From the NCBI GenBank assembly GCA_963712135.1, contig CAVQGV010000026.1:388671-452670 (forward strand): a stretch of DNA of 64,000 bases, given 5' to 3'. A program made the position numbers and the translations under genes. The notes beneath the pieces were generated by a model. The model was not told the origin of the DNA, searched no databases, and saw only the letters and a program-made list of their open reading frames with translations. This document shows positions 1 through 64,000 of the stretch, piece by piece. Origin of the DNA: an uncultured Gammaproteobacteria bacterium (lineage in GTDB: Bacteria; Pseudomonadota; Gammaproteobacteria; Pseudomonadales; Halieaceae). Position 1 is the stretch's first letter; each line of letters starts with the position of its first letter.

Positions 1-624
1 AGGACGATTATGGTACCACCGTGGCCTGGACCTTTGCGGCAGGCGGGCGCGTTAGTGCCGAGGATACGACCGGTTGTAAATATGCCGGCCAGATGACGCA
101 AAGCCTCCCTCAATTCAATGTTTTTGAGCTTAAGTTAGTGCTTTCAGATTGCGCGCTTGCGGGGACTTACTCGGGATTGGCCGCGGCCTGGCCGGGCTGG
201 GAACAGCCGTTCGTCCTGGGGATTTCTGTGGAGGACGGAGCAGGGCGAGCGTTGAATTTCATTGTGGGCGGTTAGTTGTCTGTATGTATTCGCTAGTGCA
301 AAGGGAGCCCTCCCCATATTCGCGAGGCAATTTTGGTAAGGTAGTTCAAAGAGGCTTTGCGCCCCCTTCAGTAATGAAAGCGGGACCTGATGCCGGGCCA
401 GATATCCCTGCTTGTTAACGGTCAGCTCCAGCTTCGTAACCTCGCCAAGCCCTGCCCGGTATTTTTGATTTGTTCTGTGAATAGTAAAAATCCCCATCAT
501 TGATTTCAATTATGGAGCTACGGTCTCTACACTAGCCCGGTCTTGACCAGAGGGACCGTGCCCGATTCGACACCCTCTTCCAACTAATTAGATTTCCCGC
601 AACCCAGTATCCAGAGGTACTACC

Positions 625-2220
625 ATGACTACGTTTCAGAATGAACTTGCTGAATTGGCCCGGCTGCGTCAAAAGAACGGCAGCGCCTGGGATCACATCA
701 ACCCCGAGTCCGCCGCCCGCATGCGCCTGCAGAACCGCTTCAGGACCGGCCTGGATATCGCCAGGTACACGGCGGCGATCATGCGCAAGGACATGGCGGA
801 GTACGATGCTGACAGCAGTCAGTACACCCAGTCCCTGGGGTGTTGGCACGGCTTTATCGGCCAGCAGAAGCTGATTGCCATCAAGAAACACTTCGGTGAC
901 ACCAGCAAGCGCTACCTGTACCTCTCCGGTTGGATGATTGCAGCATTGCGCTCTGAGTTTGGTCCTCTGCCCGACCAGTCAATGCACGAGAAAACCTCTG
1001 TGTCCGATCTTATCGAAGAGCTGTATACCTTCCTGCGCCAGGCTGACGCCCGCGAGCTGGGCGGCTTGTTCCGCGAACTGGATGCCGCGCGCGAATCCGG
1101 CAACAAAAGTGCAGAGCAGGCGGTACAGAAAAAAATCGACAACTTCCAGACGCACGTCGTTCCGATCATTGCTGACATCGACGCCGGTTTCGGCAACGCT
1201 GAAGCAACCTACCTGCTGGCGCGCAAGATGATCGAGGCGGGTGCCTGTGCCATCCAGATCGAGAACCAGGTATCCGACGAGAAACAGTGCGGTCACCAGG
1301 ACGGTAAGGTCACCGTTCCCCATGAGGACTTCCTGGCCAAGATCCGCGCCGTACGTTACGCCTTCCTGGAACTGGGTGTTGATGACGGGATCATCGTAGC
1401 CCGTACCGACTCGCTCGGCGCCGGCCTGACCAAGCAGATTGCTGTGACACACACGCCCGGCGATCTGGGCGATCAGTACAACAGCTTCCTCGATATGGAA
1501 GAGCTTTCCGTCGCGGAGATGAGTCACGGCGACGTTATCATCAAGCATCACGATCAGTTGATGCGTCCCAAGCGCCTGCCGTCCAACCTCTACCAGTTCC
1601 GCAAGGGTACCGGTGAAGATCGCTGTGTACTGGATAGCATTACCTCTCTGCAGCACGGCGCTGATCTGCTGTGGATTGAAACCGAGAAGCCGCATATCGG
1701 CCAGATCGGTGGTATGGTCAAGCGCATCCGTGAGGTCATTCCCAACGCCAAACTGGTGTACAACAACAGCCCCTCTTTTAACTGGACGCTGAACTTCCGC
1801 CAGCAGATCTTTGATGCGTGGAGCAAGGCGGGCAAGGACGTATCAGCCTACAAGCGTGACGCGCTGATGAGCGTCGACTATGACGGTACCGAACTGGCCG
1901 CTGAAGCCGACGAGAAGATTCGCACCTTCCAGGCTGATTCCGCGCGCGAAGCAGGTATTTTCCATCACCTGATCACTCTGCCGACGTATCACACCGCAGC
2001 ACTGTCTACTGATAACCTGGCAAAGGAATACTTTGGCGAGCAGGGCATGCTGGGCTATGTGGCCGGCGTGCAGCGCCAGGAAATCCGCCAGGGTATCGCC
2101 TGCGTCAAGCACCAGAATATGGCAGGCTCTGACCTCGGCGATGACCACAAGGAGTACTTCGCCGGTGAAGCCGCCCTGAAAGCTGGTGGTGCACATAACA
2201 CCATGAACCAGTTCGGCTGA
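625..2220 (+). CDS. aceA: isocitrate lyase (long, about 530 aa form)
   Basis: 531 aa ORF with the ICL signature K-[KR]-C-G-H (EKQCGHQDGK); overall long-form ICL architecture. Confidence 0.93.
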   Translation: MTTFQNELAELARLRQKNGSAWDHINPESAARMRLQNRFRTGLDIARYTAAIMRKDMAEYDADSSQYTQSLGCWHGFIGQQKLIAIKKHFGDTSKRYLYLSGWMIAALRSEFGPLPDQSMHEKTSVSDLIEELYTFLRQADARELGGLFRELDAARESGNKSAEQAVQKKIDNFQTHVVPIIADIDAGFGNAEATYLLARKMIEAGACAIQIENQVSDEKQCGHQDGKVTVPHEDFLAKIRAVRYAFLELGVDDGIIVARTDSLGAGLTKQIAVTHTPGDLGDQYNSFLDMEELSVAEMSHGDVIIKHHDQLMRPKRLPSNLYQFRKGTGEDRCVLDSITSLQHGADLLWIETEKPHIGQIGGMVKRIREVIPNAKLVYNNSPSFNWTLNFRQQIFDAWSKAGKDVSAYKRDALMSVDYDGTELAAEADEKIRTFQADSAREAGIFHHLITLPTYHTAALSTDNLAKEYFGEQGMLGYVAGVQRQEIRQGIACVKHQNMAGSDLGDDHKEYFAGEAALKAGGAHNTMNQFG

Positions 2221-2380
2221 GTCTGGCGCAGCCTGCGCTTAGCGCGGCCAAGCCATGGCGAGGGCGGGTTTTCTTCCCGCCCTTTTTTTTGCCCGTTATT
2301 CGAGGGTTCCAGAGAGGAATGGATGTGGTACATTTTAGCCGAATATCCAGTGCTGACGGCATGAGGGTAGCGGGGACTGT

Positions 2381-2899
2381 ATGCGATGGGATGATATCGA
2401 TAAACAGGTGTGTTCGGTGGCGCGCGCGCTGTCCGTGGTCGGTGAGCGCTGGACCATGCTGATTCTGCGCGATGCGTTTCTCGGTACGCGCCGTTTCGAT
2501 CAGTTCCAGAGCAACCTGGGCATTACACGCCACCGTCTGTCAGAGCGACTGACCATGCTCGTGGAGCAGGGTGTGCTGGTGAAGGTGCCTTACCACCAGC
2601 GACCGCTGCGCTACGAATACCGCCTTACCCGCAAGGGTTTGGGACTGTACCCTGTGCTGATGAGTCTGGCGCGCTGGGGCGATGACTGGATGGACAAAGG
2701 TAAGGGCGCTCCTCTGGAATACGTACATCACTCCTGCGGCAACAAAACCCGTCCCACACTTACCTGCAGTGAATGTGGTGAGCCACTACGACCGGAGGAG
2801 GTCGGGGCGCAACTGGGTCCCGCACTGCGCGATCCTGCGCATCCTAACGAGGCCGCGTCTTTGAAGGATATCCCCACGCTAATGAAACGAACGGTATAG
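2381..2899 (+). CDS. HxlR-family winged-helix transcriptional regulator
   Basis: ERWTMLILRDAF motif typical of the HxlR/MarR-like family; 172 aa. Confidence 0.8.
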   Translation: MRWDDIDKQVCSVARALSVVGERWTMLILRDAFLGTRRFDQFQSNLGITRHRLSERLTMLVEQGVLVKVPYHQRPLRYEYRLTRKGLGLYPVLMSLARWGDDWMDKGKGAPLEYVHHSCGNKTRPTLTCSECGEPLRPEEVGAQLGPALRDPAHPNEAASLKDIPTLMKRTV

Positions 2900-3170
2900 A
2901 GCTATGGTGATACGATGTCCAACAGATTACTTGCAGCAGTTCATGATCCCGAACTTGTAGCTTTCCAATATCCCCGATTACTGGAAATCTGTACTCAGTG
3001 TCATTCGGCATATGCCAAATCAAGGTTTCCAGAGTTCGCTTTACCTGATCAGCAGGACCATCATCACTGAGCGAAACATAACGATCCAGGTTATGCCGAG
3101 AAAACTCCGGAAGAATTTTTAGGTATCCGATGGTAGCTATGCCCGTGACACTGGCATAACGGAACATACT

Positions 3171-3938
3171 TCAAAAATATTGCTCAGTCAGAATCTGCCC
3201 AGGCTTGTGATGCAAGTGTTTTTGCATACCACGCGCCGCCAGGATCGATTGAATATCCTTAATCATATTGTGGTTACCGCACAACATTACACTGCTTGTC
3301 GCTTTACTTATGGGAAAACCAACGCTCCGCTCCAGGTCTCCACGATTTAATGTGTCCGTAATACGCCCATTTAATCCAGTAGGGTTCTTTTCTCGGGAAA
3401 CACACGAGAGGTAACGAAATCGTTCAGGATACTTCGATTGAACCAAATTGATCACGTCCTGGTATACAAGCTCTTCACAGTAGGGGACACCATGCACCAG
3501 TACAACATTCTCATATCGCTCCCAGAGTTGGCCAGTTCGTAGGATCGACAAATAAGGCCCCAAGCCAGTACCCGTAGCAACTAGCCAGAGATCTCTCGCA
3601 GAAGGTATTTCGGCTAGAATGAAAAAGCCGCTAGCCGGTTGTGATACTGCCACGGAATCATTCTTCTGTAACGCTGCAAGTGCGTTGGACAGTTTGCCAC
3701 CCGGGACGGTATTGAAGAAAACTTCCACTACGGGATCACCAGGTATATTCACCAGTGAATAGGGCCTTGCTACCTTTTCACCATCGATGTCGAGTTCCAG
3801 TCGTACAAACTGCCCGGCCTCAAATTGTAATGACTCGACGTCCAGACGAAGCGCGTACAAGCGCTTTGTCAGTGCCTCATTGCTCAATACACGCCCATCA
3901 ATCATTCTGGAACGCTGGATCTGTCTGAGAACTGACAT
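3171..3938 (-). CDS. fpr: ferredoxin-NADP+ reductase (flavodoxin reductase family)
   Basis: FAD/NAD-binding FNR fold motifs (RPYSL, GTGLGPYLSIL); start set at internal Met MSVLRQ (position 3938) rather than the upstream ORF extension. Confidence 0.85.
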   Translation of the reverse strand: MSVLRQIQRSRMIDGRVLSNEALTKRLYALRLDVESLQFEAGQFVRLELDIDGEKVARPYSLVNIPGDPVVEVFFNTVPGGKLSNALAALQKNDSVAVSQPASGFFILAEIPSARDLWLVATGTGLGPYLSILRTGQLWERYENVVLVHGVPYCEELVYQDVINLVQSKYPERFRYLSCVSREKNPTGLNGRITDTLNRGDLERSVGFPISKATSSVMLCGNHNMIKDIQSILAARGMQKHLHHKPGQILTEQYF

Positions 3939-3961
3939 ATATTTCTCCTCAATAGAGGCGC

Positions 3962-7235: not shown

Positions 7236-8031
7236 TCATAAAAATTGTTGGCACGGCGTGATCAGGGGGAAATCTCCCTGCGGATGGCTACTGATGATGA
7301 CATCAACATCAAACACCTCTTTGAACAATGCTTGCGTGAATACCTGATCTGGCGTTCCCAGGGCTGCCTGCTGGCCCTTGTCCAATACCAGTATCTGGTC
7401 TGCGACACTGGCTGCCAGGTTGAGATCGTGTATCACCAGCACCACGCTGCAACCCCGCTCGGGCCAGCTGACGTATTGCCAGGAGCACCTGTTGCTGATG
7501 GGCCAGGTCCAGGGCCGAGGTGGGTTCGTCCAGTAGTAGGAGTCTACCCGATCAGGGACTTCTCGCCACAGACCTGCGCGAATACTCTGGCCAGTTGCGT
7601 GCGCTGTTTCTCGCCGACGGAAAGTTGCGTGTAGAGCCTGTGCCTCAGGTGCAGTGTGTCGGTAAGTCGCAGCGCCTCGCTCCACGACTTCCCTGTCTGT
7701 CTGATGGCCGCTGCTGTGGGGTATGCGTCCCAGCATGACCACTTCATCAACGGTATAGGGGAAGTTAAGCAGGGACATCTGTGGCAGCACGGCCATGTGT
7801 TGTGCGCGGTCCTGCGGTGACCACTGCGCCAGTGATCGACCACCGAAGGTCAGTTGGCCCGGTGCTGATCCGGATGTCACCTGCGATGAGCTGCAGCAGG
7901 CTGGACTTACCCGCGCCGTTGGGCCCGGCGAGTCCGAGTACAGCGCCGGGTTCGAGGGTAAAGGTAATGTCCTTCAGCAGCGCCTGGCCCCAGGGTGCAG
8001 CATGGACACCGGCAAGTTGTAAGGTGCTCAC
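7236..8031 (-). pseudogene. btuD: ABC transporter ATPase (BtuD/FecE-like) broken into 3 frames
   Basis: Walker A GPNGAGKSSLL (ORF 7765-8031), ABC signature LSVGEKQR (7544-7843) and C-terminal domain (7236-7880) lie in three different frames. Confidence 0.7.
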
Positions 8032-8066
8032 GGGTTAACACCGTTTCGAGTTGCGCTGCGCTTGCA

Positions 8067-9216
8067 TTACTGCATTCCATAATGGTGGCGTTTGCGCAAC
8101 AGCGAGATAAAGAAGGGCACGCCGACAATGGTGGTGATGACCCCAACAGGTAATTCGGTGGGTGCCACCAGGACGCGGGCCAGAGTATCTGCCACGACCA
8201 GCAACAGCGCACCGGCCAGCGCCGAGGCAGGCATCAGGTAGCGATGATCGGGTCCCGCCAGCATGCGGATCATATGCGGCACTACGAGACCCACGAAGGC
8301 GATCGTGCCTACCAGGGCCACCGAGGTGCCAACTCCGATAGCTACCCAGGTAATCAAGGCCACCTTGATACTGTCAACCCTGATACCCAGATGCCGGGCC
8401 TCGGATTCACCGAGCAACAGCGCATTCAGCGCCAGGGCGTAGCGGGGCAGTGTCACCAGCAATGCGGAGCTCACCACCGTGGCCAGCAGCAGTCGAGGGT
8501 AGTTGGCCCCGTCCAGCCCTCCCATCTTCCACACGCTGATGCGTCGCAACATGTCGTTGTCGGCGAAGAACTCCAGCAGGCTGCCGATTGCCCCAGACAG
8601 GGCGGTGATCGCGATGCCAGCCAGTAACATGGTTGCCACCGATGTGCCATTGGGTGATGTTGCCAGTCGGTACACAAAAAGCACAGCGATCACACCGCCT
8701 GCAAAAGCACCGGCGGACACCAGGGTGAGCCCGGTATAGCCCTGTAGCAGGTTGCCTCCGGTTACGATGACCAGCGCCGCGCCCAGCGAGGCCCCGGCAG
8801 TGACGCCAATCAGAGAAGGGTCCGCCAGTGGATTGCGAAACAGGCCCTGCATCGCGGCTCCGCTAATCGCCAGTGTCGCACCCATGACCGCCGCCAGCAG
8901 AACGCGCGGCAAGCGTATCTGTCCGACGATCAACGCGTTCTGGTTACCGGTCTCTCCCGACAGCGTATCCGTCAGTCCCTGCACGACGTCGGACAGCGGA
9001 GAGGCTGACAGCGCCGCTGGCCAGGCTCAGCGCCATGGCGCAGGGCAGTACGGCTGCCAGTGCGACAATCAGCAATCGCGCGCGCTGTTGTCGCTGTGAG
9101 TACAGGCCGGTGTTAATAATCGACGCCCTTGCGGGCCTTGATGCCGGCCTTGAACGCGTGTTTGACCTCCCTGACTTCCGATACGGTATCCATAATCCTC
9201 TGCAGCGCTGTGCCAC
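8067..9216 (-). pseudogene. btuC: FecCD-family ABC permease (BtuC-like), frameshift near the N-terminus (about 8984-9000)
   Basis: 305 aa permease body (8067-8984) plus a separate-frame N-terminal signal anchor segment RARLLIVALAAVLPCAMALSLASGAVSLS (8944-9216). Confidence 0.65.
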
Positions 9217-9723
9217 CGCCGCGACCGGTGACTGACCACGCTTTGCGTAGCGGGGCGCTCGCTGATGGCGTGGATGATCTCGTCCTCGGGCAGATAGTCG
9301 TAGGCAATCATGTAGGTCAGCTCATCCAGCACAACCAGATCGAAGCTGGCATCGCGTAACATGCTCCTTGGCCACTGCCCAGGTCCTGATAGCTGCAACG
9401 ATATCGCCGCTGCGGTCCTGGGTGTCCCAGGTAAAGCCGGTGCCCATCTGGTAGAAATCTACCTGCGGGCAGTGTTCCTTCAGGTAGATTTCCTCGCCGG
9501 ACAACTGTTCACCCTTGATGAACTGCACCACGCCGACCTTCTGGCCGTAGCCCAGGGCGCGCATCACCATGCCGAAGGCAGAACTGGATTTACCCTTGCC
9601 ATCGCCTGTGAGTAGAACGGCGACACCACGCTCGGTACTGGCAGCGTCAATGCTGGCATCGACGCTGGCCTTCTGCTTTTGCATGGCTGCCTTGTGTTTG
9701 GCGTCCTTACGACTGTCACTCAT
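9113..9723 (-). pseudogene. cobO: cob(I)yrinic acid a,c-diamide adenosyltransferase (CobO/BtuR) in 3 frames
   Basis: N-terminal P-loop region VLLTGDGKGKSS (9322-9723), middle FDLVVLDELTYMIAYDYL (9069-9398) and C-terminus VTGRGG...GIKARKGVDY (9113-9307) each in a different frame. Confidence 0.7.
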
Positions 9724-9733
9724 GACGCATCCT

Positions 9734-16657: not shown

Positions 16658-17253
16658 TCAATCCCCGATCTGGGTAGCTGCCTCGCTTCCCCATAGCTGT
16701 TGCAGTCGCTGGTCGCGCCCGCAGTTCCAGCGATAGTACTTGTAGCGTACCGGATTCTTCAGGTAGTAATCCTGGTGGTAATTCTCCACTGGCCAGAACG
16801 CGCCCGCATCGAGAATCTCGGTGTACACAGTTCCTGACCGCTGAAGCGCGCCGCGACCGCCGTCTTTGATTGTTCGGCCATTTCTCGTTCCGCAGCACTA
16901 GCCGGAAAAATGGCGCTGCGGTAGCTGGAGCCCTTGTCACAGAACTGGCCTTTATCGTCGAAGGGGTCGATATTGCGCCAGAACAGGTCAAGCAGTTCCT
17001 GATAACTGACCACAGTGGGGTCGTAGGTGACTTCAACGGCCTCGAAATGACCCGCGTGGTTCCCCGAGTAGGTGGGGTTTTTCAGAGTGCCGCCGGTAAA
17101 GCCGGAGACCACGCCCGTGACTCCTTCCTGCTCTTCATACGCGGACTCCATACACCAGAAGCAACCCCCGGCGAATAGCGCGGTGGCAGAGCCCGCCATT
17201 GCCGGGGTAATGAAGGCGAGTAGGGTGATCAGGAGCAGGGGTATGTGTCGCAT
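16658..17253 (-). pseudogene. msrA: peptide methionine sulfoxide reductase MsrA with one frameshift near 16840
   Basis: GGCFWC active site in the 16759-17253 ORF; the true C-terminus TEILDAGAFWPVENYHQDYYLKNPVRYKYYRWNCGRDQRLQQLWG is found in another frame ending at 16658. Confidence 0.8.
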
Positions 17254-17493
17254 GGAACGGAGTTCTCAGTAAGTGCCTGTATTGATAGATAGTTATCCAA
17301 AAAATTAGTTCATCTATGGCTAAATAAGTCAACATAATGTTAAAAGTTGGTTTAAATCTCTTAATTTTTCGATAGCACCCATTTTTTTCGGTTATCTGGA
17401 GAAATCTCCAGTTTTTGGTCGCCTATTGGTTATGGGAGTGGCTATTCTGTATGCATCCTGAGATATAACTCGGGCAAATAGGGAACAGGGACA

Positions 17494-39280: not shown

Positions 39281-39314
39281 GCAGTACACCTTTTGCGCAA
39301 ATCGGCGTCGTGGC

Positions 39315-44350: not shown

Positions 44351-44354
44351 CGAC

Positions 44355-49844: not shown

Positions 49845-49848
<4 letters not shown>
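48466..49848 (-). CDS. fumC: class II fumarate hydratase
   Basis: 460 aa; GSSIMPGKVNP signature. Confidence 0.9.
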
Positions 49849-52527
<2,679 letters not shown>

Positions 52528-52559: not shown

Positions 52560-54825
52560 CAGTATAGAGGATAAACATGCTCCCCGCTGTCACTGTAATC
52601 CGGACGCGCCGACATGGCAGCGGGTACAGTACATACACCCCCGCCAATACCAGAGCCGCCCGGAGAGTTGGCCCCGGGATAGGGGATGTCCTAAACGGTC
52701 GCAAGCATTTCCCGTTGCCGTCGGTCCAGGGCACTCGTGCCAGATTCACGGGCCAACCAATTACCCCGTGATGTTTAGGGGAGCAGCAGACCGCTGTTGG
52801 GTACGACAAAGAGTCGGAGTCTAAACGGATACGTTTGAGTGTCAACAAGGGAACCAGGGAAGCTCGGCTGAGTAGGGTAGTCGCACAGCTAGGCCGGTCT
52901 TCGGACCGACCGAAGCACCTACCGATGAGGCAGCCGAGTGGCGGAGCACCCGTAGTAGTCGGAGACGTGAAAGACGTTCACATGGCGAAGGGGTGCAGGA
53001 TGATTCGTGTTTGGATGACTGAAGTGTTCTTTAATTTGGAGGCTTCCAAATGAACATCGAAGAAGTCCAGCGTAGGCTCTGGGAGCAATCGCAGGCCCAC
53101 AAGCAACACAGGGAGTCAGGAACACCGCTCTTTCCGACCAACCCGTACGGTGGCCGGATTCGGAACCTGATGGACCTGATGCACAATCCCACGTGGATTG
53201 CGGCAGCTTGTGACCGCGTGCTGAAACGCTCCCGTGGCAAAGCAGCAGGCGTAGACGGGGTGACGGCTCGCGAGTTCGCAAGAACCGTGAGTCCCGCCTC
53301 GAACAACTACGCCTGGAGTTGAAACGCGGTACGTATCGGCCTCTGCCGCTACGACGGGTGGAAATTCCCAAGGCTAACGGCAAAATGCGCCAGCTTGGAA
53401 TCCCCTGTCTGCGGGACAAGATCGTCCAAGAGGCAATACGTATGGCGTTGGAACCCATCTTCGAGGTCGAGTTCCATGACAACTCCTACGGGTTTCGGCC
53501 CAACCGGAGCACACACCACGCGGTGGCCCGTTGCCGCCATATGGCATTGACGGGCTTCACCTGGATCATCGAGGGCGATGTCAAGGCTTGCTTTGACGAA
53601 ATCTCGCACAAGGCGATCCTGCGGTGCGTCAGGGAAAAGGTGATGGACAACAAGTTTCTCGCTCTGATCCACCTCCTGTTGAAGGCGGGCGTGGAAATCG
53701 ACGGCGTCGTTCATCCGACCGACCAAAGGGGTTCCTCAGGGTGGCGTGGTCTCACCGCTCCTGGCCAACGTCGTGCTGAACAAATTGGATTGGTTTCTCC
53801 ATTCCAAGGGGTTCCACGGCAACGGCCAGCGAGAGGCGGTGCATCGCCACGGCCTGCCAAATGTCCGGTTCTGCCCGCTACGCCGACGATTGGTGCGTGT
53901 TTCTCACGCGCTGCAATCGGCAGCATGCGGAACGGCTACGGGACGAGATCCGCGACTTCCTTCGGGAAACCTGCGGGCTCGAACTGTCGGCCGAAAAGAC
54001 CCGGATTACCCACGTGAGAGACGGGTACGACTTTCTCGGATTCAACATCTCTGTAGGTGTTGGCAAATCCGGGAAGTTGGTGCCCAAAGTCAGGGTAGGC
54101 CGCAAGGCAATCACCAACATCCAGACTCGCTTGGGCGAGGCCCTTCGCTATCGCCCAATGCAGGAAAGCATCTCGGTCCGTCTTGTTCGTGCTTCGGCAG
54201 TCATTCGTGGCTGGTCGAACTACTTCAAGATTGCCCACAACTTCTCGCAAGTTGCTCACGGGCTGGACCACAAGGCTTTCTGGATCGCGGTGAAAGCGAT
54301 ATGTCGGAAGGAAGACATATCGACTGCCCAAGTGTCTCCGCAGGTACCGTCTTCGGAACACCATTGGGGTTCACGAAGACTGTACCCTGGCCCGCTTCCA
54401 AGATACGGCGTCGACGTACTACTGTCCGTCACCGGAACCGTATCAACCCGGCTGCAACCAGCCGTACCTGGAAGACGACGAATGGGAGGCGGCTTTCGTC
54501 TTCCACGAACGTCAACGGCCTGGTTGCGGAGACCTCAAGTGGAAGGCTTTGGTTCGCGACGGCTTTCATTGCCGTGGCTGCGCGGTCGTGGTCACATCCA
54601 AGACCTCGCACGCGGACCATATCGAACCTGTCAACCGCTTTGCCAACCTCGCAATGGCGAACGACTTGGACAACATCCAGACGCTTGTGTCTGCGATGTC
54701 ACAAGCTCAAAACTGCGAGGGAACAATGAGAATAGAATCATCTGGAAAGCCGGATGCTTGGAAACTTGCACGTCCGGTTTGGGGTTGGGGCCGGGGTGAA
54801 ACTCCCCGGCCTACACCACATGCCC
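52560..54825 (+). mobile_element. group II intron (domains I-IV with RT/maturase/HNH ORF); 3' end (domains V/VI) not confidently found and apparently cut at the GC break
   Basis: About 490 nt structured leader with hairpins before the IEP ORF; IEP has RT motifs (YRPLPLRRVEIPKANGKMRQLGIPCLRDKIVQ; YADDWCVF), maturase X and C-terminal HNH (HADHIEP...); only a weak GNRA-capped hairpin GGCCGGGG-TGAAAC-TCCCCGGCC at about 54806-54827. Confidence 0.6.
53050..54799 (+). pseudogene. group II intron-encoded reverse transcriptase/maturase/HNH endonuclease, in at least 4 frames
   Basis: RT domains 0-4 (53050-53760), RT5-7 with YADD (53861-...), X and HNH (to about 54730) are each in different frames. Confidence 0.7.
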
Positions 54826-55540
54826 TGGCGCTGCCGTCGAGTTCGAGCCCCCGGGCACATTCCCCGAGGTGACCGGCTATCGGGGCGGCGGCCCGCACGG
54901 CTTGGCCCCGGGCGAATGGACCGACGACACCAGCATGGCGCTGGCCGACCCCCCTGAGCGGCCCCATCCCGCAATCGCCCGGAGATACTTGGTCGGTACT
55001 TCACCATGCGCTAGTGCGCGGAACGCGGGGGCTGCCAGGCGGATTGACCCTTTCCAAGTTGCTCACGAAACATGGGCTAAAGTGAAGCAGCGCGATCAAC
55101 ATAGCTCGATGGGCTATCGAGCACGCCCGGGACGGGTTGGCCCGCCGATCTTCATCCCTCGCCCAATCGCAGCCGCTCCAGAAAATCGGACCGAATCCGG
55201 TCCCGGACGCCTCCCACAGCAGCGACTCCGCGAGGGCCTGCCCACGCCGGGCCTCCAACTCCGCCAGCCGGGCCGCATGGAACGGAGCACAGCATGGCTC
55301 GACCGATGGCCATCCAGGCAAGCTGGTACGACAATCCACAATATTATGACCTCGCGTATCGCTCAGGGCATGATCCGCGGAGGTGCCGTATCGGGTGGAT
55401 TGATCGGCTATTGCGGAGCCTGTTGCATTGCCGATGGATGGACCCGGCGTTGGACGTCGGGTTCGATAACACCGAAGGTGGCCTCGTACCGCTGGATGGT
55501 CATCATCAAGGCTTGCAACATCCGTTTCGCCGAGAAATAG
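54826..55540 (+). CDS. ADP-ribosylglycohydrolase-family protein, 5'-truncated at the GC break; later part of the ORF doubtful
   Basis: Frame begins mid-domain with ...VEFEPPGTFPEVTGYRGGGPHGLAPGEWTDDTSMALA, the conserved ARH motif, with no upstream N-terminus. Confidence 0.4.
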
Positions 55541-55767
55541 TTGGTGACGATCCGCTGGGTGATAGCAATCGGCACAGTCGGCACCCCGAACGGCTGGGGA
55601 TTGACGCCAAAGTCGAGGATCAGCTCCTCCGGCGTGCCGGTGACTCGGCAGAAGTTGTTGTACATTGGGACGGCCCTTGAGTCATCAATCCGGATCTGCG
55701 GTTGCTGCGCCTGATCCTGGGCAGGGGCCTGCGGGGAGGTGTCAGGATTGCTGCCGGGTTCGACCAT
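55408..55767 (-). CDS. DUF3467-like small protein
   Basis: 119 aa; RAVPMYNNFCRVTGTPEELILDFGVNP resembles the DUF3467 core; from memory. Confidence 0.35.
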   Translation of the reverse strand: MVEPGSNPDTSPQAPAQDQAQQPQIRIDDSRAVPMYNNFCRVTGTPEELILDFGVNPQPFGVPTVPIAITQRIVTNYFSAKRMLQALMMTIQRYEATFGVIEPDVQRRVHPSAMQQAPQ

Positions 55768-56179: not shown

Positions 56180-57293
56180 TCAGTCCGCCGGAAGTCTCCC
56201 GGCTCTCCAGACCAGCCACGCGCCAAAACCAACGGCGCATCCGCCCAGATGCGCCAGGGCGGAAACATGGCCGATTCCCAAAAGCTGCTCGACGGCTAAC
56301 CAGCATTGCAGCAACAGCCAGAGCACCATCGCGACCCAAGCGGGCAGGTAGATCCAGCGGAACCAGAACCAGAATCCGCCACAGGAAGCCCAATCGGGCG
56401 TGTGGGTACCGCAAGGCGTAGAAGGCGATGGCCCCAGAAATGCCCCCGCTGGCACCGACGCACGGGACCGTGGCCCATGGATCGGCCAGGATATGCAACA
56501 GATCGCCGAACAGCGCCGCCCCTGCAATCAACAGTGCATAGCGCCACCGGCCAAGGTCGTCTTCCACGTTGTCGCCGAAGACCAATAGGAAATAGGCGTT
56601 GCCCAGCAAATGGAGGAAGCCCCCGTGCAGAAAGAAACTCGTCAGCAGCGTCAAGCCCCCGTGCCGCCCAAGCTGAGCGGGCACCAGGCCCCAATCGTCC
56701 ACAACGGGCTTCAAGTTCCACGCCGTCAGCGCGAACACCAGCGCCATGGCGGCGGCCAGCCCCCACGTCAACCAGGGCCAACAGCGGATCGGGTTGACGT
56801 CGAACTCGACGGGAAAGCCAAACAGAGCGGGAATCCACTTCCACTCCTCGTCCGGCGATTCCTCGCCAAGGCATGAGGCGCGTTCCTTGGCTTCGAGGGT
56901 CTTCAGTTGCATCAGGGCGATTTGTTCCCGTGCCTTCTCGGGCAGCCGCTCCCGGAGGCTCGGCTCTCGCTTGACGGAAGGGAGTTGCCCCGATTCCATG
57001 GGATCGAGCCACACGAATTGGCAAGCGGGGCACACATCGAGCGCCACTGAACCGACAGACGCGGGGACCGGCACCTCAGCCATCGCGCGGTGGCAGATCG
57101 GACATTCTTTTCCCGGCCAAGCGTCCTCCTGCCGTGCCCGCAGCCATAGGTCTTTCACCAATTTTTCGGGAACGAGTTTCCGCAGTACGGGAATGCCGAT
57201 GGCACGGCCTTTACACTTCGGACAATCGAAGGCAACTCCCTGCGGAATCGCTGTCCGTGCCAGCCGCTGATTGCAACGAGGGCAAAGAGCCAT
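56180..57293 (-). pseudogene. rhomboid-family intramembrane serine protease with N-terminal double zinc-ribbon, frameshift about 56400-56500
   Basis: CPRCNQRL...CPKC and CPICHRA...CPACQ zinc ribbons; rhomboid motifs HLLGN and GASGGISG; catalytic His region AHLGG lies in a separate frame (56180-56527). Confidence 0.6.
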
Positions 57294-58900
57294 CGCCGGT
57301 CCTCCGCTGCTATTTCTCTGGGGAGCACCATGATTGTCTTCTCCGCCCGGCCGCCGCGTCCGCTCTTGTCCCAGACGATCAGCGTCACGCGGTACTTGCC
57401 CGGCTGGTCGAAGGTGTGCTTCGGTTGGGCCGTGACTTCCGGGATGCCGTCGCCGAAGTCCCATAGCCGCTCGACGATCGCCGCCCGCCGGACGCGAGTT
57501 GCACTGGAACTGAGCCGGCTCCCCGGCCCGGATCGTCTCCGGCACGACGGAAGTCGGCCACCGGCGGCGGACTGGGCAAGCGGCTTGGCCGCCGGGAGCC
57601 GGTCGTTCTTGTTCCCCTCGACCTTGCAGTCGGTGAACTCCAGGGCCGTGTACTGCGGAGGGCCGACGACGGCGGCCTGCCCGTTGCCGGTGATCGCGCA
57701 GCGGAGGAAGGCCAGAGCAATCGACGTCCCGTCCGCCGAGCTGCACGCCGTAGCCGCCGTTGTTGCGGAAGGCGCAATCCTCGAAGACCAGTCCCCGGCA
57801 GGCGCCGTTGGTGCGGAAGCCGTGGCCGCTGTCCTGGGGATACCGGGCCTGTGGAGTCGCCGCGGACCGTGTTCTCGAAGACGCAGCGGTAGAAGTAGTG
57901 ATGGGCGATGCCGCCGGTCTCGCCCTGGAACTGGGCACCCCACTGGGCGCAGTCGCGGACCGTGTTGTAGCCCCAGTAGACGTTGTTCTTGACCGGCTTG
58001 TTGGAGACCGACAGGCCGATATGCGCGCCCCGCTTGACGACGTTGTCGGTGACCACCACATCGCGGGCGATGATCTCGATGCCCAGGAACTTGAGCGTGC
58101 CGTCGTCGGTGCCGATCACGTTGCGCCGCACGGCCGATTGGTCGCCGCTGGTCGACGCTGAGCCAGTGGTCGACGACGTTGTCCTCGATGAGCGATCGCG
58201 GGCAGCCGCCCCAGATCTCGATGCCCAGCCCTTCGCCGCCGGAGCCGCTGACGCGGTTGTTGCGGATGACCAGCTCGGCCGAGTGGTCGCCGAAGATGCC
58301 GCCCCGGCCGGTGTTGTGGATCATGTTGCCGAGCACCTGGTTCCGTACCGAGCCCCAGGCCAGGCGGATGCCGCCGCCGTACTCGGCCTCCAGGCCGATG
58401 TTCTCGATCCGGCAGTCGGTGATGCGGCTGTCGGTCACGCCGCCTTCCATGCGTCGGGTTGTGGCCGGAGAAGAGGATGCGCGTGCGGGCCCCAGGTCTC
58501 GGCCTTGCAGGTTGCGGATCGTCAGGTGGTGGAGCCAGAGCCGCCGCGAGTCGCTGCCGCTGATGCCCTGGTGGACCAGCGGATTGTTCTGGCCGTCGAG
58601 CGTCATGTGGGCGATCTCCACGTCCTCGCAGCCGCTGAGGCTGATGAGGACGCCGGGCTTGGTGCCCTTGTAGACCAGCCGCGTCTTGTCCTGCCCGGCG
58701 CCGAGCAGCTTGATCCCCGACTTGGGCCGGATCGGCTCGGCCAGCTCGAACGTGCCCTCCGGCAGGCGGACGGTGTCGCCCGGTGCAGCCTGTCGAATGG
58801 CGGCGGCGATGCTGTGGGAGCCGAATCCCTTGGGCTCAATGACCGCTGAGGGCTTGGCCGCGACAACGAGACGCAGAACATGACTATGGGCAGCATCCCT
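57155..58900 (-). pseudogene. secreted right-handed beta-helix (PbH1 repeat) protein with C-terminal PKD domain, frameshifted
   Basis: Parallel beta-helix repeats (NIG..A.YGGGI; GNMIHNTGRGGIFG; IRNNRVSGSGGEG) and PKD motif WDFGDG...YRVTLIVWD; N-terminal part lies in another frame. Confidence 0.5.
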
Positions 58901-58905
58901 GCACT

Positions 58906-59154
58906 CTAATGAGGGCAGCTCGCGGTGTCAAACAGCCGGCCATCCGCTTCGGCGAGTTCCTGCCGGACCTCCATGCGAATCTCCGCAGAGCTGGTTCCGT
59001 CCCTTTCCCCGGCATATCCCCCAGAAATTGGTTTCTTGGCCGCCTGGAAGGCGTGCTCCACGGTCGGGTATTCGATGCGCTCAAAGGTAATCGGCGCAGG
59101 GTGGAAGTTCGACAGGAAGCTGTACTCTCCCTGGAAACGGTCGATTACTTGCAT
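58906..59154 (-). pseudogene. NADAR-domain (YbiA-like) protein, truncated or frameshifted
   Basis: MQVIDRFQGEYSFLSNFHPAPITFERIEYPTVEHAFQAAK is the NADAR N-terminal core; ORF ends after about 80 aa. Confidence 0.45.
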
Positions 59155-59382
59155 CGTTGGCTTCACGGAATTGACGGGAATCGAACCGCGGGCACCGCTA
59201 TTGTACGAAGATCGGCGTTGGAAACAGGAAGCCCGGAGGCCGGGATCGCTCCCAGCCTCCGGGCATCGCATTCGATCAGAGCAGGTTCACGACCCGCTCG
59301 GCCAGGCCCTTCTCGCCCAGCACGACGTTCAGCTTGCCGCTGGCGGCGACCTTCTCCAGGACTTCCAGCTCCCGGAGCCGCA

Positions 59383-60399
59383 TCAGCGTCGGGTTGTCCT
59401 GCCAGCAGCTTGGCCGTGTTGGCCTGGCTGCGCATGGCCGCCGTCTCCTCGCGGCGGACGATGAGGTTGGCCTCGGCCGCCTTCTTGGCCTCCGTGACCT
59501 TGTTCATCAGGTCCTTCATGTCGCCCGGCAGGATCACGTCGCGGATGCCGACCGAGACGATCTCCAGACCCAACTCGGCCACCCGCTGGCGGACGATCTC
59601 CTCCAGCTCGCTCGGCCACGGCGTCCTTGTCGGCCAGGAACGGGTCGAGTTCGCGGGCGCCGACCACCGCCCGCAGGGCCAACTGCGCCTCGCGGTACAG
59701 CGCCTGGCGGGCGTCGTCGGCCGCGCTGACCGCCTTGCGGGCGTCGACCACGCGGTAGGTGACCACCGCGTTCAGGCGCAGCGTGACCTTGTCGGCCGTC
59801 ATGATCTCCTGGCCGCCGACGTCGAGCATCGTCTCGCGCAGGTCGACCGGCACGAGCTTGACCTCGGCCACGTTCTTCCAGAAGGCGTACTGGCCCGGCG
59901 GCAGCGTCTCGACGTAGTCGGCCGTCCACGAACAGCACGCCCACGTGGCCCTGCTCGACCGCGCAGACGTCCAGCACGCGGTCGGCCATGCGCCGAGCGG
60001 ACGATCACCTGGAGGTCCTCGTGCTCGAAGCGGACCTTGCGGGCGTCGACCACCTCGACGCGCCACCTCGCGGAAGCCGGTCCAGTAGGCGTACAGGCCC
60101 GGCGGCAGGATGTGGCTGAAGCGGCCGTCGATCCAGACCAGCGCCCGCTCGTAGTCCTTCAGGTCCAGCACCACGGCGCGGTCCTCCAGCGCACCCGACT
60201 TGACGATCACGTCGAGCTTCTCGTGGACCAGCCACGGGTCGCGCTGCGAGACGACCTCGACCTTGACCTTGCCCAGCGGGTCGAAGAACCAGTGGCGGCC
60301 CGCGCCGAGCAGGCCCTGGAACTCGCCGTCGCGGAAGTACAGGCCCATTTCGTAGCTGCGGATCTTGATGGTCTTCAGCACAGCACAGTCATCCTTCAC
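59383..60399 (-). pseudogene. SPFH/band-7 domain protein with 2-3 N-terminal repeat modules, frameshifted
   Basis: SPFH core (VDLRETMLDVGGQEIMTADKVTLRLNAVVTYRVVD) preceded by repeated approximately LPPG(L/Q)YA(Y/F)W...EV modules, one of them in another frame (59799-60053). Confidence 0.45.
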
Positions 60400-60827: not shown

Positions 60828-60905
60828 GTGTTGGTACGGGAGTCGAACCCGCGACAGCCAGATTCATGGTCTGGTGCTCTACCACTGAGCTAACCTCGGT
60901 TGACA
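60828..60905 (-). tRNA. tRNA-like gene (T-loop GGGTTCGACTCC, D-arm AGCTCAGTGGTAGAGC); acceptor pairing imperfect, anticodon loop CCATGAA (possibly CAT)
   Basis: Manual fold; the acceptor stem could not be paired cleanly. Confidence 0.35.
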
Positions 60906-61009
60906 CGACCATCGGTCAGAACCCATGTACGGAACACACGTCGCCAACCGCCTCGTTGGAGGACAGGGCGACGTGCGCCGCTGGCCCGGCCGTATCATTG
61001 CTTCCAAAG

Positions 61010-61081
61010 AGACGCCGGTGGGAGTCGAACCCACTTGAAGCTGCTTTGCAGGCAGCCGCCGTGCCGTCTGGCTCCAGCGCC
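61010..61081 (-). tRNA. tRNA-Cys (GCA)
   Basis: Acceptor GGCGCTG/CGGCGTC, anticodon loop CTGCAAA, T-arm GTGGG-TTCGACT-CCCAC. Confidence 0.7.
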
Positions 61082-61091
61082 ACGTTGTCAG

Positions 61092-61164
61092 TGTCCTCGC
61101 CAGGAATCGAACCTGGTCTTCGACCTTCGCAGGGTCGCGTGCGAATCCGGCACACTCCGAGGAC
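61092..61164 (-). tRNA. tRNA-Arg with anticodon GCG as read (G34 unusual)
   Basis: Acceptor GTCCTCG/CGAGGAC; anticodon stem CGACC/GGTCG, loop CTGCGAA. Confidence 0.5.
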
Positions 61165-61179
61165 GTATTCTCGTTCAGC

Positions 61180-61251
61180 GCCCCGCCGAGGAATCGAACC
61201 TCGTCTTGCAGTTTCGAAGACTGCCGTGCTGATCCGGCACACTCGCAGGGC
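61180..61251 (-). tRNA. tRNA-Arg (TCG)
   Basis: Acceptor GCCCTGC/GCGGGGC; loop CTTCGAA; T-arm CGAGG-TTCGATT-CCTCG. Confidence 0.65.
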
Positions 61252-61259
61252 ATGTCAAG

Positions 61260-61331
61260 TGTCTCGACCAGGAATCGAACCTGGATCTGGACCTTCGGAG
61301 GGTCCTATGCGATCCGTTACACCATCGAGAC
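61260..61331 (-). tRNA. tRNA-Arg (CCG)
   Basis: Acceptor GTCTCGA/TCGAGAC; anticodon stem GGACC/GGTCC, loop CTCCGAA. Confidence 0.65.
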
Positions 61332-61337
61332 ATTCAG

Positions 61338-61409
61338 CATCCCGACCTGGAGTCGAACCAGGACCAGGACCTTAGGAGAGCCCCGTGCGATCCGCTACAC
61401 CATCGGGAC
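61338..61409 (-). tRNA. tRNA-Arg (CCT), tentative
   Basis: Acceptor GTCCCGA/TCGGGAT; anticodon stem with G.U pairs, loop CTCCTAA. Confidence 0.5.
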
Positions 61410-61420
61410 ATACACACCAG

Positions 61421-61493
61421 AGCCGACGACTGGATTTGCACCAGCATCGATGCGGTTTACAAAACCGCCGCCTCTCTGTTCGGCCACGTCGGC
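61421..61493 (-). tRNA. tRNA-Thr (TGT)
   Basis: Acceptor GCCGACG/CGTCGGC; anticodon stem GCGGT/ACCGC, loop TTTGTAA; T-loop TGCAAAT. Confidence 0.6.
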
Positions 61494-61500
61494 AATCAAG

Positions 61501-61571
61501 CAGGAGCGCGAGGAGTCGAACCCCGTCCGGCGGCTTTGGAGACCGCCTGCTCTCCCAGGAGCACACTCCTG
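61501..61571 (-). tRNA. tRNA-Trp (CCA), tentative
   Basis: Acceptor AGGAGTG/CGCTCCT; loop CTCCAAA; followed by hairpin GGCCCCCGG..CCGGGGGCC (61571-61608), which is probably the terminator of the adjacent HNH gene. Confidence 0.4.
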
Positions 61572-61615
61572 TATCGGCCCCCGGCCTTGCGGACCGGGGG
61601 CTCTTGGCGTAACGA

Positions 61616-62214
61616 CTACTCTCGCAGCGTCACGTTCCAGTACGCTTCGCTGACGAACTTCGACCAGCTTTCGATCCGCACGTCGTGGTCCGCGTACAGC
61701 GGCTTCCACGTCGGCCGGACCGGCTGCTTGCGCAGCCGCATCCGCGCCTGCTCCGGCGTGCGGTCGGCCTTCCGCTTGTTGCAGGCCATGCACGCCAGCA
61801 CGCAGTTCTCCCAGCTCGACACGCCACCCTGCGACACGCGGCACGACGTGGTCGATCGTCAGTTCCTCGCTGCCCGGCTGCGCACCGCAGTACTGGCAGG
61901 TGTAGTGGTCACGCTTGAAGATGTTCCGCCGGCTGAAGGTCACTGGGCCACCGGCAGCCGGTCGTAGCCGCGTCAGCGCGACCACCTCCGGCACCCGCAG
62001 CCGGAACCGCACCGCCTGGATGAACGGCTCGCCGTCGCGCGGCCGCAGCTTCGACCAGTCCTCCCAGGTGTAGAGCTGGTAGTCGGCCGGGTCCACGACG
62101 CGGGCCGACTCGTTCCACAACAGCACCAGCGCCCGCGCCACGGTGGCCACGTTCACCGGCTGCCAGTTGCGGTTCAGGACCAGCGTCGGCCGCTGGAGTA
62201 TTCTCGGGGTCATG
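61616..62214 (-). pseudogene. HNH homing-type endonuclease, one frameshift
   Basis: HYTCQYCG...IDHVVP (first frame, start ATG 62212-62214) and ...[20 protein letters not shown] (second frame) form the HNH motif; embedded in the tRNA array. Confidence 0.6.
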
Positions 62215-62234
62215 GTCACGTCCTTTCCATCAAG

Positions 62235-62309
62235 GGTGTCCGGGCGGAGTCGAACCCCCACCTTCTGGTTCACAGCCAGCCGTGCAGAAACCGCTACACC
62301 ACAGACACC
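62235..62309 (-). tRNA. tRNA-His (GTG) with encoded G-1
   Basis: G-1 pairs with C73; acceptor GTGTCTG/CGGACAC; loop CTGTGAA; one T-stem mismatch. Confidence 0.6.
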
Positions 62310-62350
62310 ATATGCGGGCCGCCGTCCTACCGGGCGACGGCCCGCTCGAA

Positions 62351-63166
62351 TCAGTCGAGAAACGCCAGATGCCGCATGGAGGCCGCCTGGCTCTCGGTGT
62401 TCGGCACGACCCGGTGCCACCCGTTGAGCTTGACCGTCTTGTGGTCCGGGTGGCGAATCTTGCCGCGAACGTACACTCCGGCGTCCCGCCGCATCACGCG
62501 CCACGGCAGCCGCTTCTTGGCCGGGTTCTCGGCGATCAGTCGCCGATACGCCGACTCGCTGATTCCCTGCGGGTACTCGAAGCAAACGTAGACGTTCACT
62601 CCGCCGCTCCGGTACAGGAACTCAGCCCAATGCGGCTTGCCGCGTCCGCGTGCCAGCGGTTCATTGCTCAGCACCAGCTTCGGGTCCACAACCAGGTCCG
62701 GCTCGGGGATGAAGAACCATTCCCCCTGCCGGATGAAAGCCTTGTTGTGGCGCCGGTTGCGGTGCCGCGCCTTCAGTCCCTTGCGGGCCTGGGCCGCCAG
62801 CACCTCCGAGGGCTTGAGGGCCTCCATGGCGGTGCGGACGGTGGCCACGCCCGACGTCTCCGGCACGGCCGCAGCGAACCAGTCCCGCTCGTCGTGGCCG
62901 CAGAGGAACTTGTGCTTCTCCTCGCGGTGGCCGTCAGGCTCGCGGACGAGCAGCAACAGGTGCCGCTGGCCGGGCTGGATGTCCAGGACCTCCAGTTCCC
63001 GCTCCGCGTCTTCGCCGAGGGTGACATCGAAGAACGGGCCATGCCCGTCCCGGCCGATGTCCACGGCGAAGCCGGTGAAGCGGGAGCGCCGAATCGTCGA
63101 CCGCACGTTCACCTTGAGCCGTGCGCCCATGCGGGCGAACTGCTTCTCCAGTAACGTGGTATCCAT
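62351..63166 (-). CDS. hypothetical protein (phage-like context)
   Basis: 272 aa from MDTTLLEKQ; no recognised domain; in-frame upstream extension not used. Confidence 0.3.
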   Translation of the reverse strand: MDTTLLEKQFARMGARLKVNVRSTIRRSRFTGFAVDIGRDGHGPFFDVTLGEDAERELEVLDIQPGQRHLLLLVREPDGHREEKHKFLCGHDERDWFAAAVPETSGVATVRTAMEALKPSEVLAAQARKGLKARHRNRRHNKAFIRQGEWFFIPEPDLVVDPKLVLSNEPLARGRGKPHWAEFLYRSGGVNVYVCFEYPQGISESAYRRLIAENPAKKRLPWRVMRRDAGVYVRGKIRHPDHKTVKLNGWHRVVPNTESQAASMRHLAFLD

Positions 63167-63323
63167 AACCTTTCCTTTGTGTTGAGGATCATGGCGGCGC
63201 ACGACGCCGCCATGAACGATTGTCAGTCTCGAACAACAGACGCAGGTCGGATTGTTCTGGGCATCAGCATCGCAACACTCCTTTCGCCATAGGGACACGT
63301 CGTCCCACGCAAAGGTTCTCCAG

Positions 63324-63395
63324 CACCCCGACCAGGAGTCGAACCTGGAACACCTCGTTAGAAGCGAGGCATGATTTCCGTTTCACCATCGGGGC
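63324..63395 (-). tRNA. tRNA-Arg (TCT)
   Basis: Acceptor GCCCCGA/TCGGGGT; anticodon stem CCTCG/CGAGG, loop CTTCTAA. Confidence 0.6.
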
Positions 63396-63415
63396 ACATA
63401 ATCCGGCACACCAAG

Positions 63416-63502
63416 CGGAAGGCAAGGGAGTCGAACCCTCATCTCCACGGGGGAGAACCGCGTTAGCAGAGCGGCCCGGCCAACCGTATCCGGCTACCTT
63501 CC
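63416..63502 (-). tRNA. tRNA-Ser (GCT), type II long variable arm
   Basis: Acceptor GGAAGGT/GCCTTCC; loop CTGCTAA; 87 nt with extra arm. Confidence 0.55.
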
Positions 63503-63528
63503 GTAATCATCGATCCATTTCGATCCAG

Positions 63529-63599
63529 TGGACCGCCGGGGAATCGAACCCCGATTTCCTGGGTGCAAACCAGGCGTCTTCCCGTTGGACCAGCGGCCC
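63529..63599 (-). tRNA. tRNA-Ala (TGC)
   Basis: Acceptor GGGCCGC/GCGGTCC; anticodon stem CCTGG/CCAGG, loop TTTGCAC. Confidence 0.65.
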
Positions 63600-63611
63600 G
63601 TATCATCCGAG

Positions 63612-63682
63612 AGGTCCGTCCGGGAATTGAACCCGGTCTTCCTCCTTACCACGGAGGTGTGCTGCCAAAACACCTACAGACC
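63612..63682 (-). tRNA. tRNA-Thr (GGT)
   Basis: Acceptor GGTCTGT/ACGGACC; anticodon stem CCTCC/GGAGG, loop GTGGTAA. Confidence 0.6.
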
Positions 63683-63691
63683 ATTCGCAAG

Positions 63692-63764
63692 TGATCCCGG
63701 ATGGAGTCGAACCATCACTTTCCTGGTTGTCACCCAGGCGTCTTTGCCGTTGGACCACGGGATC
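63692..63764 (-). tRNA. tRNA-Val (GAC)
   Basis: Acceptor GATCCCG/CGGGATC; anticodon stem CCTGG/CCAGG, loop GTGACAA. Confidence 0.65.
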
Positions 63765-63772
63765 GTTCACAG

Positions 63773-63846
63773 TGACCGAGGTGGGAGTCGAACCCACAGG
63801 CACGAGGCTCTCGACCTCGCCGCTTTGCCAATTTGCGTACCCGGTC
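63773..63846 (-). tRNA. tRNA gene, anticodon uncertain (loop reads TCGAGAG; GAG?)
   Basis: Acceptor GACCGGG/CTCGGTC and T-arm GTGGG-TTCGACT-CCCAC are good; anticodon arm non-canonical (C33). Confidence 0.4.
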
Positions 63847-63850
63847 AGTG

Positions 63851-63917
63851 GCGGGTCCGGGGGTCGCACCCGGCGGTCCAGGCTTATGAGGCCCGGCTGA
63901 GCACTGGCCCACCCGCG
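63851..63917 (-). tRNA. tRNA-Met/Ile (CAT)-like, acceptor imperfect
   Basis: Loop CTCATAA; T-arm CCGGG-TGCGACC-CCCGG; acceptor 6/7 bp. Confidence 0.4.
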
Positions 63918-63923
63918 CAAGTT

Positions 63924-63990
63924 GCAGGCCCCGGTATCGAACCGGGCGCACCGGCCTTATGAGAGCCAGTTGGGCACCTGCCGCGCCTGC
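63924..63990 (-). tRNA. tRNA (CAT)-like
   Basis: Loop CTCATAA; T-arm CCCGG-TTCGATA-CCGGG; near the window end. Confidence 0.4.
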
Positions 63991-64000
63991 AATAAGTGGC

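Follow-up and report, generated by a model that had tools for sequence, protein, structure and literature searches.

Broken reading frames in a composite 64,000-nucleotide Halieaceae metagenome sequence are probably consensus errors

We analyzed a 64,000-nucleotide stretch of DNA deposited as part of the genome of an uncultured gammaproteobacterium of the family Halieaceae (assembly GCA_963712135.1, contig CAVQGV010000026.1, positions 388,671 to 452,670; hereafter, the window, with positions counted from its first nucleotide). A preliminary description had noted frame breaks in unrelated genes, including the vitamin B12 uptake locus, acnA and msrA, and had offered two readings, an error-prone assembly and a genome undergoing pseudogenisation, leaning towards the second. 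Our results support the first. The broken frames are very probably consensus errors in a composite sequence. Since they look like stray insertions and the window joins two unrelated bacteria, the broken genes are not evidence of genome decay.

Spectrum and location of the frame-breaking events

Frame-breaking events were identified by comparing intact proteins of relatives with the window by tblastn and by DNA alignment. At least 45 such events were found in about 20 genes (Table 1), and the at least 25 reported before was thus a conservative figure. Every gene previously listed as broken is split across frames except NnrS. The latter is not a simple frameshift: a weak, shortened N-terminal remnant (Pfam E = 5.5e-4, under the curated cut-off) is joined to an SdhB-like fragment. 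The genes described as intact (aceA, metY, E1, amtB, ppx, fumC and MBOAT) are so, and intact genes with a close relative to align carry zero frame-shifting indels and hardly any other indels. The fragments of broken genes are well conserved in the case of the alpha/beta hydrolase (93-98% identical to relatives). The cobO sequence is spread over three frames in tblastn, and the btuC break splits the N-terminal ~30 residues off the remainder of the protein. For the beta-helix/PKD gene, frames of fragments were traced and combined with Pfam matches, with indel direction following from frame order only; the NADAR match covers just profile positions 8-51 of 163.

The indels were resolved against intact relatives at 38 events, 35 of which are insertions (32 single-base, two two-base and one seven-base) and three are deletions (in oafA, at 61943 in the HNH endonuclease gene and at 53281 in the reverse transcriptase (RT) gene of a group II intron). 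The insertion excess is highly significant (binomial p = 6.5e-8, from an earlier tally of 31:2). For each single-base insertion, the inserted base was taken to be the one whose removal best restores the protein alignment. At least 19 of 27 such bases differ from both neighbours and form no homopolymer; at most eight could be duplications. The inserted bases fit random choice, under which ~44% would match a neighbour by chance, and do not fit slippage (P = 2e-8 if 80% were templated). Among all breaks, a long homopolymer is present at that of oafA only, and the msrA break is off any homopolymer, both as previously stated. Bacterial mutation is known for its deletion bias and for a spectrum dominated by slippage. 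The spectrum observed here is unlike natural bacterial mutation and the opposite of what decay in bacteria leaves.

Deletion of the extra bases returned full-length conserved proteins with no internal stops in every resolved broken gene. Corrected acnA codes for 891 amino acids (aa) without an internal stop, at 89% identity to its counterpart in the relative locus L002, the same level as for the neighbouring fumC. Addition of one C to oafA extended the Acyl_transf_3 match from positions 117-323 (36 bits) to positions 2-323 of 326 (63 bits). No nonsense codon was found in any corrected gene, and no larger deletions or interruptions by insertion sequences (IS) were found inside the broken genes.

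The ratio of nonsynonymous to synonymous substitution rates (dN/dS) is 0.10 for corrected acnA and 0.09-0.12 for intact fumC. For 15 genes with two relatives, we divided dN/dS on the window branch by dN/dS between the relatives. Broken genes had a median ratio of 0.86 and intact ones of 0.93, and a higher ratio in broken genes was not found among these 15 (one-sided Mann-Whitney p = 0.91). The preliminary description had proposed a comparison of this kind as a check; it reveals no rise in broken genes. The test has modest power and agrees with the indel spectrum.

The events are distributed unevenly. In the assessed Halieaceae coding DNA they are over-dispersed (index of dispersion 1.9, p = 0.002), and their clusters follow position, not gene. 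Zero events were detected in 28,965-38,697 and in 39,315-50,790, and smaller patches are located at 7.46-10.9 kb (11 events), 16.8-17.6, 20.05, 25.3-26.0 and 38.7-39.2 kb. Parts of broken genes are clean, namely the 5' ~650 bp of btuB (about 10890-11543) and the first 1.5 kb of exeA. Within acnA, there is a boundary between clean and dirty sequence: the last 960 bp of the gene (3' end, 49833-50789) contain no event and run on into fumC, also clean, and the first event is encountered at 50,792, two thirds along the gene. From 50,790 to 64,000, more than 30 events follow without interruption, in coding DNA, the intron, spacers and tRNA genes. The event rate is ~0.5 per kb, in patches, in the Halieaceae part and ~2.5-3 per kb over its last 1.8 kb and all of the second part. 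Local GC content was considered as a cause of the patches and rejected, the association being weak (0.597 at events vs 0.584 in the background, p = 0.07).

Composition of the window

Taxonomic affinity and gene order are not consistent across the window and change at ~52,630. On both counts, the window represents two unrelated bacteria joined together and not one genome. Positions 1 to ~52,630 are assigned to a chromosome segment of Halieaceae (Gammaproteobacteria), because five relative loci (L001/L083, L002/L084, L003 and L085) keep the gene order from ~600 to 52,500 and the best relatives of fumC, the MerR/TPR regulator and metY belong to Halioglobus/Parahaliea-type metagenome-assembled genomes (MAGs), at 87-91% protein identity.

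That Halieaceae DNA ends at ~52,630 and unrelated sequence begins there in the middle of a repeat, the group II intron, follows from several observations. Homology to metagenomic copies of the intron begins at 52,635. Ten other copies have ~270 nt more upstream, with the canonical 5' end GTGCGCCTGA first; instead of this region, the window has the acnA 5' coding sequence and ~100 bp upstream of the acnA start codon. GC content rises from 57% in the left part to 65% in the right part and is 65.6% in the 3' flank of the intron. Finally, both Halieaceae relatives carry at the site of the intron a TLP1_add_C gene that the window lacks. Rfam models of intron domains I-IV gave no match in the window, and the 5' limit was set by aligning the metagenomic copies. 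The join at ~52,630 could stem from an assembly mis-join, from a chimeric read or from the end-to-end placement of two contigs of one bin. The truncated intron has no demonstrated link to the Halieaceae genome. An intron copy that lacks its 5' end and is located at a join with planctomycete-like DNA does not provide the context of decay for which it had been cited.

The intron family itself is widespread, with more than 80 copies (L131-L210; RT identity 80-95%) in JGI and other metagenome contigs. A search for a close copy on plasmids gave only short, distant matches. The nearest copy is L163 in the 5' part and L132 and L133 in the 3' part; a test for a mosaic intron was not used because natural recombination among intron copies would explain such a pattern equally well.

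Beyond the intron and up to position 64,000, the affinities of proteins and the gene order identify the sequence as Pirellulales-like planctomycete DNA, which includes a large tRNA array. Among ten hits looked up for the DUF3467 protein, the sole named relative is from a Pirellulales MAG, and all three named relatives among the best 120 hits of a 271-aa hypothetical protein are from Planctomycetota. The order tRNA array, 271-aa gene, HNH, tRNAs, Band7 is shared with environmental contigs, including L125, L126 and L129. When compared with these contigs, the array carries window-specific single-base indels in spacers and in two tRNA genes (63608, 63487, 63221, 61592, 61496, 61448 and 61414).

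Weighing the explanations

We propose that non-biological insertions of one base, occasionally two, would have been left in an incompletely corrected consensus, the source most probably being a long-read metagenome assembly. The Halieaceae segment was either mis-joined to the intron and planctomycete-like DNA or placed end to end with them as a contig of the same bin, and the rate pattern could reflect sparse reads near the end of one contig and low coverage of another. One extra base is enough to shift the frame, and intact genes then show up as strings of short open reading frames (ORFs). The frames restored by single edits, a spectrum unlike natural mutation and events that track position, through non-coding DNA and RNA genes as well, are all consistent with this scheme.

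A similar pattern was observed in a related organism. Contig_58529 of ENA ERZ25039503 (the source of L002/L084) carries four +1 insertions in phoA, all inside 500 bp, and the remaining 16 kb of the comparison are free of them. Therefore, patchy breaks of the insertion type exist in another public long-read-style assembly, and contig_58529 seems to share the same assembly problem. The sister contig_32538 has no such cluster; its indels are isolated ones, found where EamA diverges at its 3' end and where gspB is of low complexity. The phoA break region corresponds to L084 2380-3790; in the same contig, DUF3604 is split into 218 and 453 aa (L002 15295-17398). Indels that fragment genes are a well-documented problem of long-read assemblies; in one study, pseudogenes made up 23.3% of genes before correction and 5.6% after (PMC12007338).

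Several points weigh against consensus errors as the explanation. The errors are deduced from alignments rather than observed in reads. The clean and dirty patches of the Halieaceae part are without a demonstrated cause. The broken genes include no clearly essential one, a pattern also expected of real decay. The power of dN/dS is limited, given that neutral accumulation of six indels in acnA would bring only ~0.02 extra substitutions per site. Lastly, nanopore consensus errors are mostly deletions in homopolymers (PMC12007338), and an insertion-rich, non-homopolymer pattern is atypical of that platform. No platform is named here because the pattern is dominated by insertions. A consensus that keeps both alleles of polymorphic sites was considered as a source of insertions, and a few sites are compatible with it, e.g., 17623, with CT in the window and either C or T in relatives.

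The alternative that survives best concerns oafA alone. Its C7/C8 tract could be a slipped-strand phase-variation switch assembled in the OFF state, which we consider possible, though not likely. No other break lies in a long homopolymer, the event is a deletion, a rare type here, one added C gives a complete AT3 domain, and the gene is located on a strain-specific island, within 9.7 kb that are otherwise free of errors; homopolymer switches are well known in genes for surface modification. Against this, homopolymers of seven to eight bases are also classic sites of sequencing error, and the argument rests on one sequence of the gene, no relative of oafA having been retrieved.

One could also suppose that the right-hand 11 kb are a real, horizontally acquired planctomycete island in a Halieaceae chromosome and that the intron was truncated by incomplete retrohoming. 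Indeed, 5'-truncated group II introns can arise biologically, and the family of the 271-aa protein is also present on IMG/VR contigs, a hint of mobility. We find this improbable, since the intron is followed by GC-rich DNA with Pirellulales-like genes and not by Halieaceae target DNA, the gene order across the tRNA array matches that of planctomycete-like contigs, the TLP1_add_C gene of both Halieaceae relatives is missing at this position, and the GC jump shows no sign of amelioration.

Real recent pseudogenisation, in which a Halieaceae lineage under relaxed selection (newly host-associated, for instance) would be losing B12 uptake, acnA, msrA and type II secretion accessory genes, among others, through frameshift mutations, is very unlikely. 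It would account for breaks that gather in certain genes (btuD, four; btuB, four; acnA, six) next to intact fumC, ppx and amtB, for the fact that no broken gene is obviously essential, and for the genuine gene remnants and island insertions present in the window. Decay of this kind is exemplified by Sodalis glossinidius and Mycobacterium leprae, with nonsense mutations, deletions, IS insertions, slippage frameshifts and raised dN/dS. In the window, frameshifts are accompanied by none of the nonsense codons, larger deletions or IS insertions of such a mixture, and dN/dS is not raised in broken genes. The 35:3 bias to insertions, most of them non-templated, and the location of all breaks but one outside long homopolymers also speak against decay. 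So do boundaries between clean and dirty sequence inside genes (acnA, 50,790) and an event density that persists beyond them, through intron and spacer sequence, tRNA genes and the DNA of a second phylum.

The context on which the preliminary description had relied fares no better. The supposedly decayed B12 locus has an unbroken btuF and a btuC with a single break at its 5' end, and deletion of extra bases restores its frames. There is a single IS copy in the window, and the integrase remnant belongs to an island insertion of an ordinary kind. Nor do the record names suggest host restriction: all close relatives of the Halieaceae part that have names are environmental MAGs of Halioglobus or Parahaliea, and none of these names carries a host or symbiont label.

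Least credible of all is the combination in which the insertions are real, through patchy addition of non-templated single bases in marine Halieaceae (this organism and the relative that contig_58529 comes from) as well as in a co-occurring planctomycete, and the planctomycete tRNA-array island did enter a gammaproteobacterial chromosome; were it true, repair by a polymerase with terminal-transferase-like activity would be a candidate process, and clustered gene inactivation would outpace the build-up of substitutions.

There is no new biological feature in the broken frames of the window, and the significance of consensus errors here is mainly cautionary. An annotation that took the sequence at face value would report some 20 pseudogenes, a "decayed B12 locus", a signal of host restriction and an inter-phylum gene cluster, all of them false. 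Four checks that need no reads, i.e., indel direction, templating, branch-specific dN/dS and break density relative to gene limits, part artefact from decay.

Other features and comparison with known systems

The Halieaceae part contains a number of structural remnants that are genuine but ordinary: the NnrS and SdhB fragments, a K+ channel tail, the tail of an old MBOAT gene and the integrase remnant. A 2-kb insert at 2900-4950, missing from L003, carries an FNR-type reductase gene, the NnrS N-terminal remnant and the SdhB-like fragment, a 4Fe-4S C-terminal piece at about 3965-4070. The C-terminal remnant of the K+ channel (~66 residues, 15701-15898, minus strand) corresponds to a full-length gene in L083 and L084; in L085, the closest relative, no channel gene is called at the matching position. 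An 8.3-kb insertion (28080-36354) interrupts a 51-aa gene that is whole in L001. At 41404-46242, the ancestral MBOAT gene has given way to a cassette low in GC (49-53%) with AMP-ligase, SDR, methyltransferase and divergent MBOAT genes, and the last 60 (C-terminal) residues of the ancestral gene are still present at 46063-46242; the cassette MBOAT is 43% identical to that of relatives.

Table 1. Coordinates of broken genes and other features in the window. Strand is given as + or -; L numbers denote relative loci used for alignment.
Feature	Position	Strand	Events or remarks	Evidence
btuD-like ABC ATPase	7236..8034	-	4 insertions: +1 at ~7866, ~7683, ~7463; +7 at ~7555	alignment to L003, fragment translations
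btuC permease	8067..9100	-	one +1 near 8995	three-frame translation vs L003, L004 N-termini
cobO	9116..9735	-	+1 at ~9367 and ~9234	alignment to L003, L004, L006
btuB TonB-dependent receptor	9737..11600	-	+1 at ~10890, ~10414, ~10080, ~9860	
Cobalamin riboswitch	11703-11865		intact, upstream of btuB	
msrA	16658..17253	-	+2 (CT) at ~16830	alignment to L083, L084, L085
DUF4124 gene	17458..17791	+	+1 at 17623	
EamA transporter	19529..20411	-	+1 (C) at 20050	
exeA	23831..25556	+	+1 at 25340	
gspB	25600..26563	+	+1 at 26016	
Arm-DNA-binding integrase remnant	28207-28353		inside 8.3-kb insertion	
oafA-type AT3-SGNH acyltransferase	28459..31013	+	1 base short in poly-C 28907-28913 (C7, needs C8); inside 8.3-kb insertion	
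E2/E1 2-oxoacid dehydrogenase genes			inside 8.3-kb insertion	
60-aa partial copy of small gene 48132-48407	34730-34909		inside 8.3-kb insertion	
IS5-like DDE transposase	35256-36224		inside 8.3-kb insertion	
Alpha/beta hydrolase	38305..39281	+	+1 at ~38697 and ~39166	
acnA	49845..52527	-	6 insertions (+1, +1, +1, +2, +1, +1): 50792, 51270, 51750, 52095, 52115, 52428	
Junction	52620..52640		Halieaceae DNA abuts group II intron without its first ~270 nt, GUGCG 5' end included	
5'-truncated group II intron	52635..54841	+	RT/maturase/HNH ORF from 53051; Domain V 54745-54819	
Group II intron RT	ORF from 53051	+	-1 at 53281; +1 at 53720, 53872, 54327, 54684	
DUF3467 gene	55411..55764	-	intact; 64% identity to Pirellulales MAG relative	
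Zn-ribbon rhomboid protease	56183..57200	-	one +1 near 56370	Pfam positions 6-94, 97-138 in different frames
Beta-helix/PKD protein	57158..58927	-	at least 5 frame changes near 58125, 57840, 57710, 57570, 57475	
NADAR fragment	58909..59286	-	at least 1 event	frame and Pfam evidence only
SPFH/Band7 gene	59279..60381	-	five +1: 60061, 59989, 59921, 59612, 59401	
tRNA array	60833..63917	-	15-16 genes, runs off window end	
HNH endonuclease	61619..62213	-	+1 at 61972, -1 at 61943, +1 at 61835	
Conserved 271-aa hypothetical protein	62351..63166	-	intact; up to 96% identical to environmental relatives	

In the right-hand part, the 271-aa protein and the 198-aa HNH endonuclease genes sit in the tRNA array in a fixed order. 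Counts elsewhere are higher: 22 tRNA genes in 4 kb of L126 (1-3963) and 31 in L129 (6719-12523). A tRNA with a CAT anticodon (63848-63917, minus strand) falls 19 nt short of the corresponding stretch in L126 (about 1313-1478), L127 and L128. No tRNA is called by ARAGORN in that stretch of the three; these relatives may have a long-arm or interrupted variant. Damage to tRNAs was tried as a proof of errors and set aside as uninformative, window Rfam scores being similar to those of the L126 and L129 counterparts. A viral origin of the tRNA-array segment was also rejected: IMG/VR relatives of the 271-aa protein reach 51% identity vs 96% in ordinary metagenome contigs.

Arrays of tRNA genes, defined as at least 20 genes at a density of at least two per kb, have been reported, as far as Planctomycetes are concerned, in only a few of them (Tran et al. 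2016, PMC4758250). The array found here resembles them in its dense head-to-tail genes, and L126 and L129 satisfy that definition (PMC4758250); the difference is that a 271-aa protein and an HNH endonuclease are carried in fixed order.

With genome decay in recently host-restricted bacteria, the window has in common dense frameshifts in unrelated genes, intact neighbours and mobile elements. It differs in that the mixture of nonsense mutations, deletions, IS insertions and slippage, the deletion bias and the raised dN/dS of decay are unseen here.

As in chimeric or contaminated metagenome contigs or bins that are broken or joined at repeats, phylum, GC content and the contigs of matching gene order all switch abruptly at a single place, and this place is within a mobile intron of many copies (over 80 related ones in JGI metagenomes). 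In the present case, the join may be the work of an assembler, of a chimeric read or simply of concatenating the contigs of one bin.

Gene-fragmenting consensus indels in long-read assemblies were reportedly described by Watson & Warr in 2019. False pseudogenes in such assemblies (PMC12007338) share with the breaks studied here highly conserved fragments, restoration of frames by single-base edits, a large share of genes broken by errors at far less than 1% of bases and, probably, an error density that tracks read support. They differ in the kind of error: homopolymer deletions in nanopore data, and insertions at 35 of 38 events, mostly non-templated, in the window. The pattern found here looks closer to stochastic insertion errors or to the consensus of mixed strains. 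Stochastic insertion errors are a property of continuous-long-read PacBio data.

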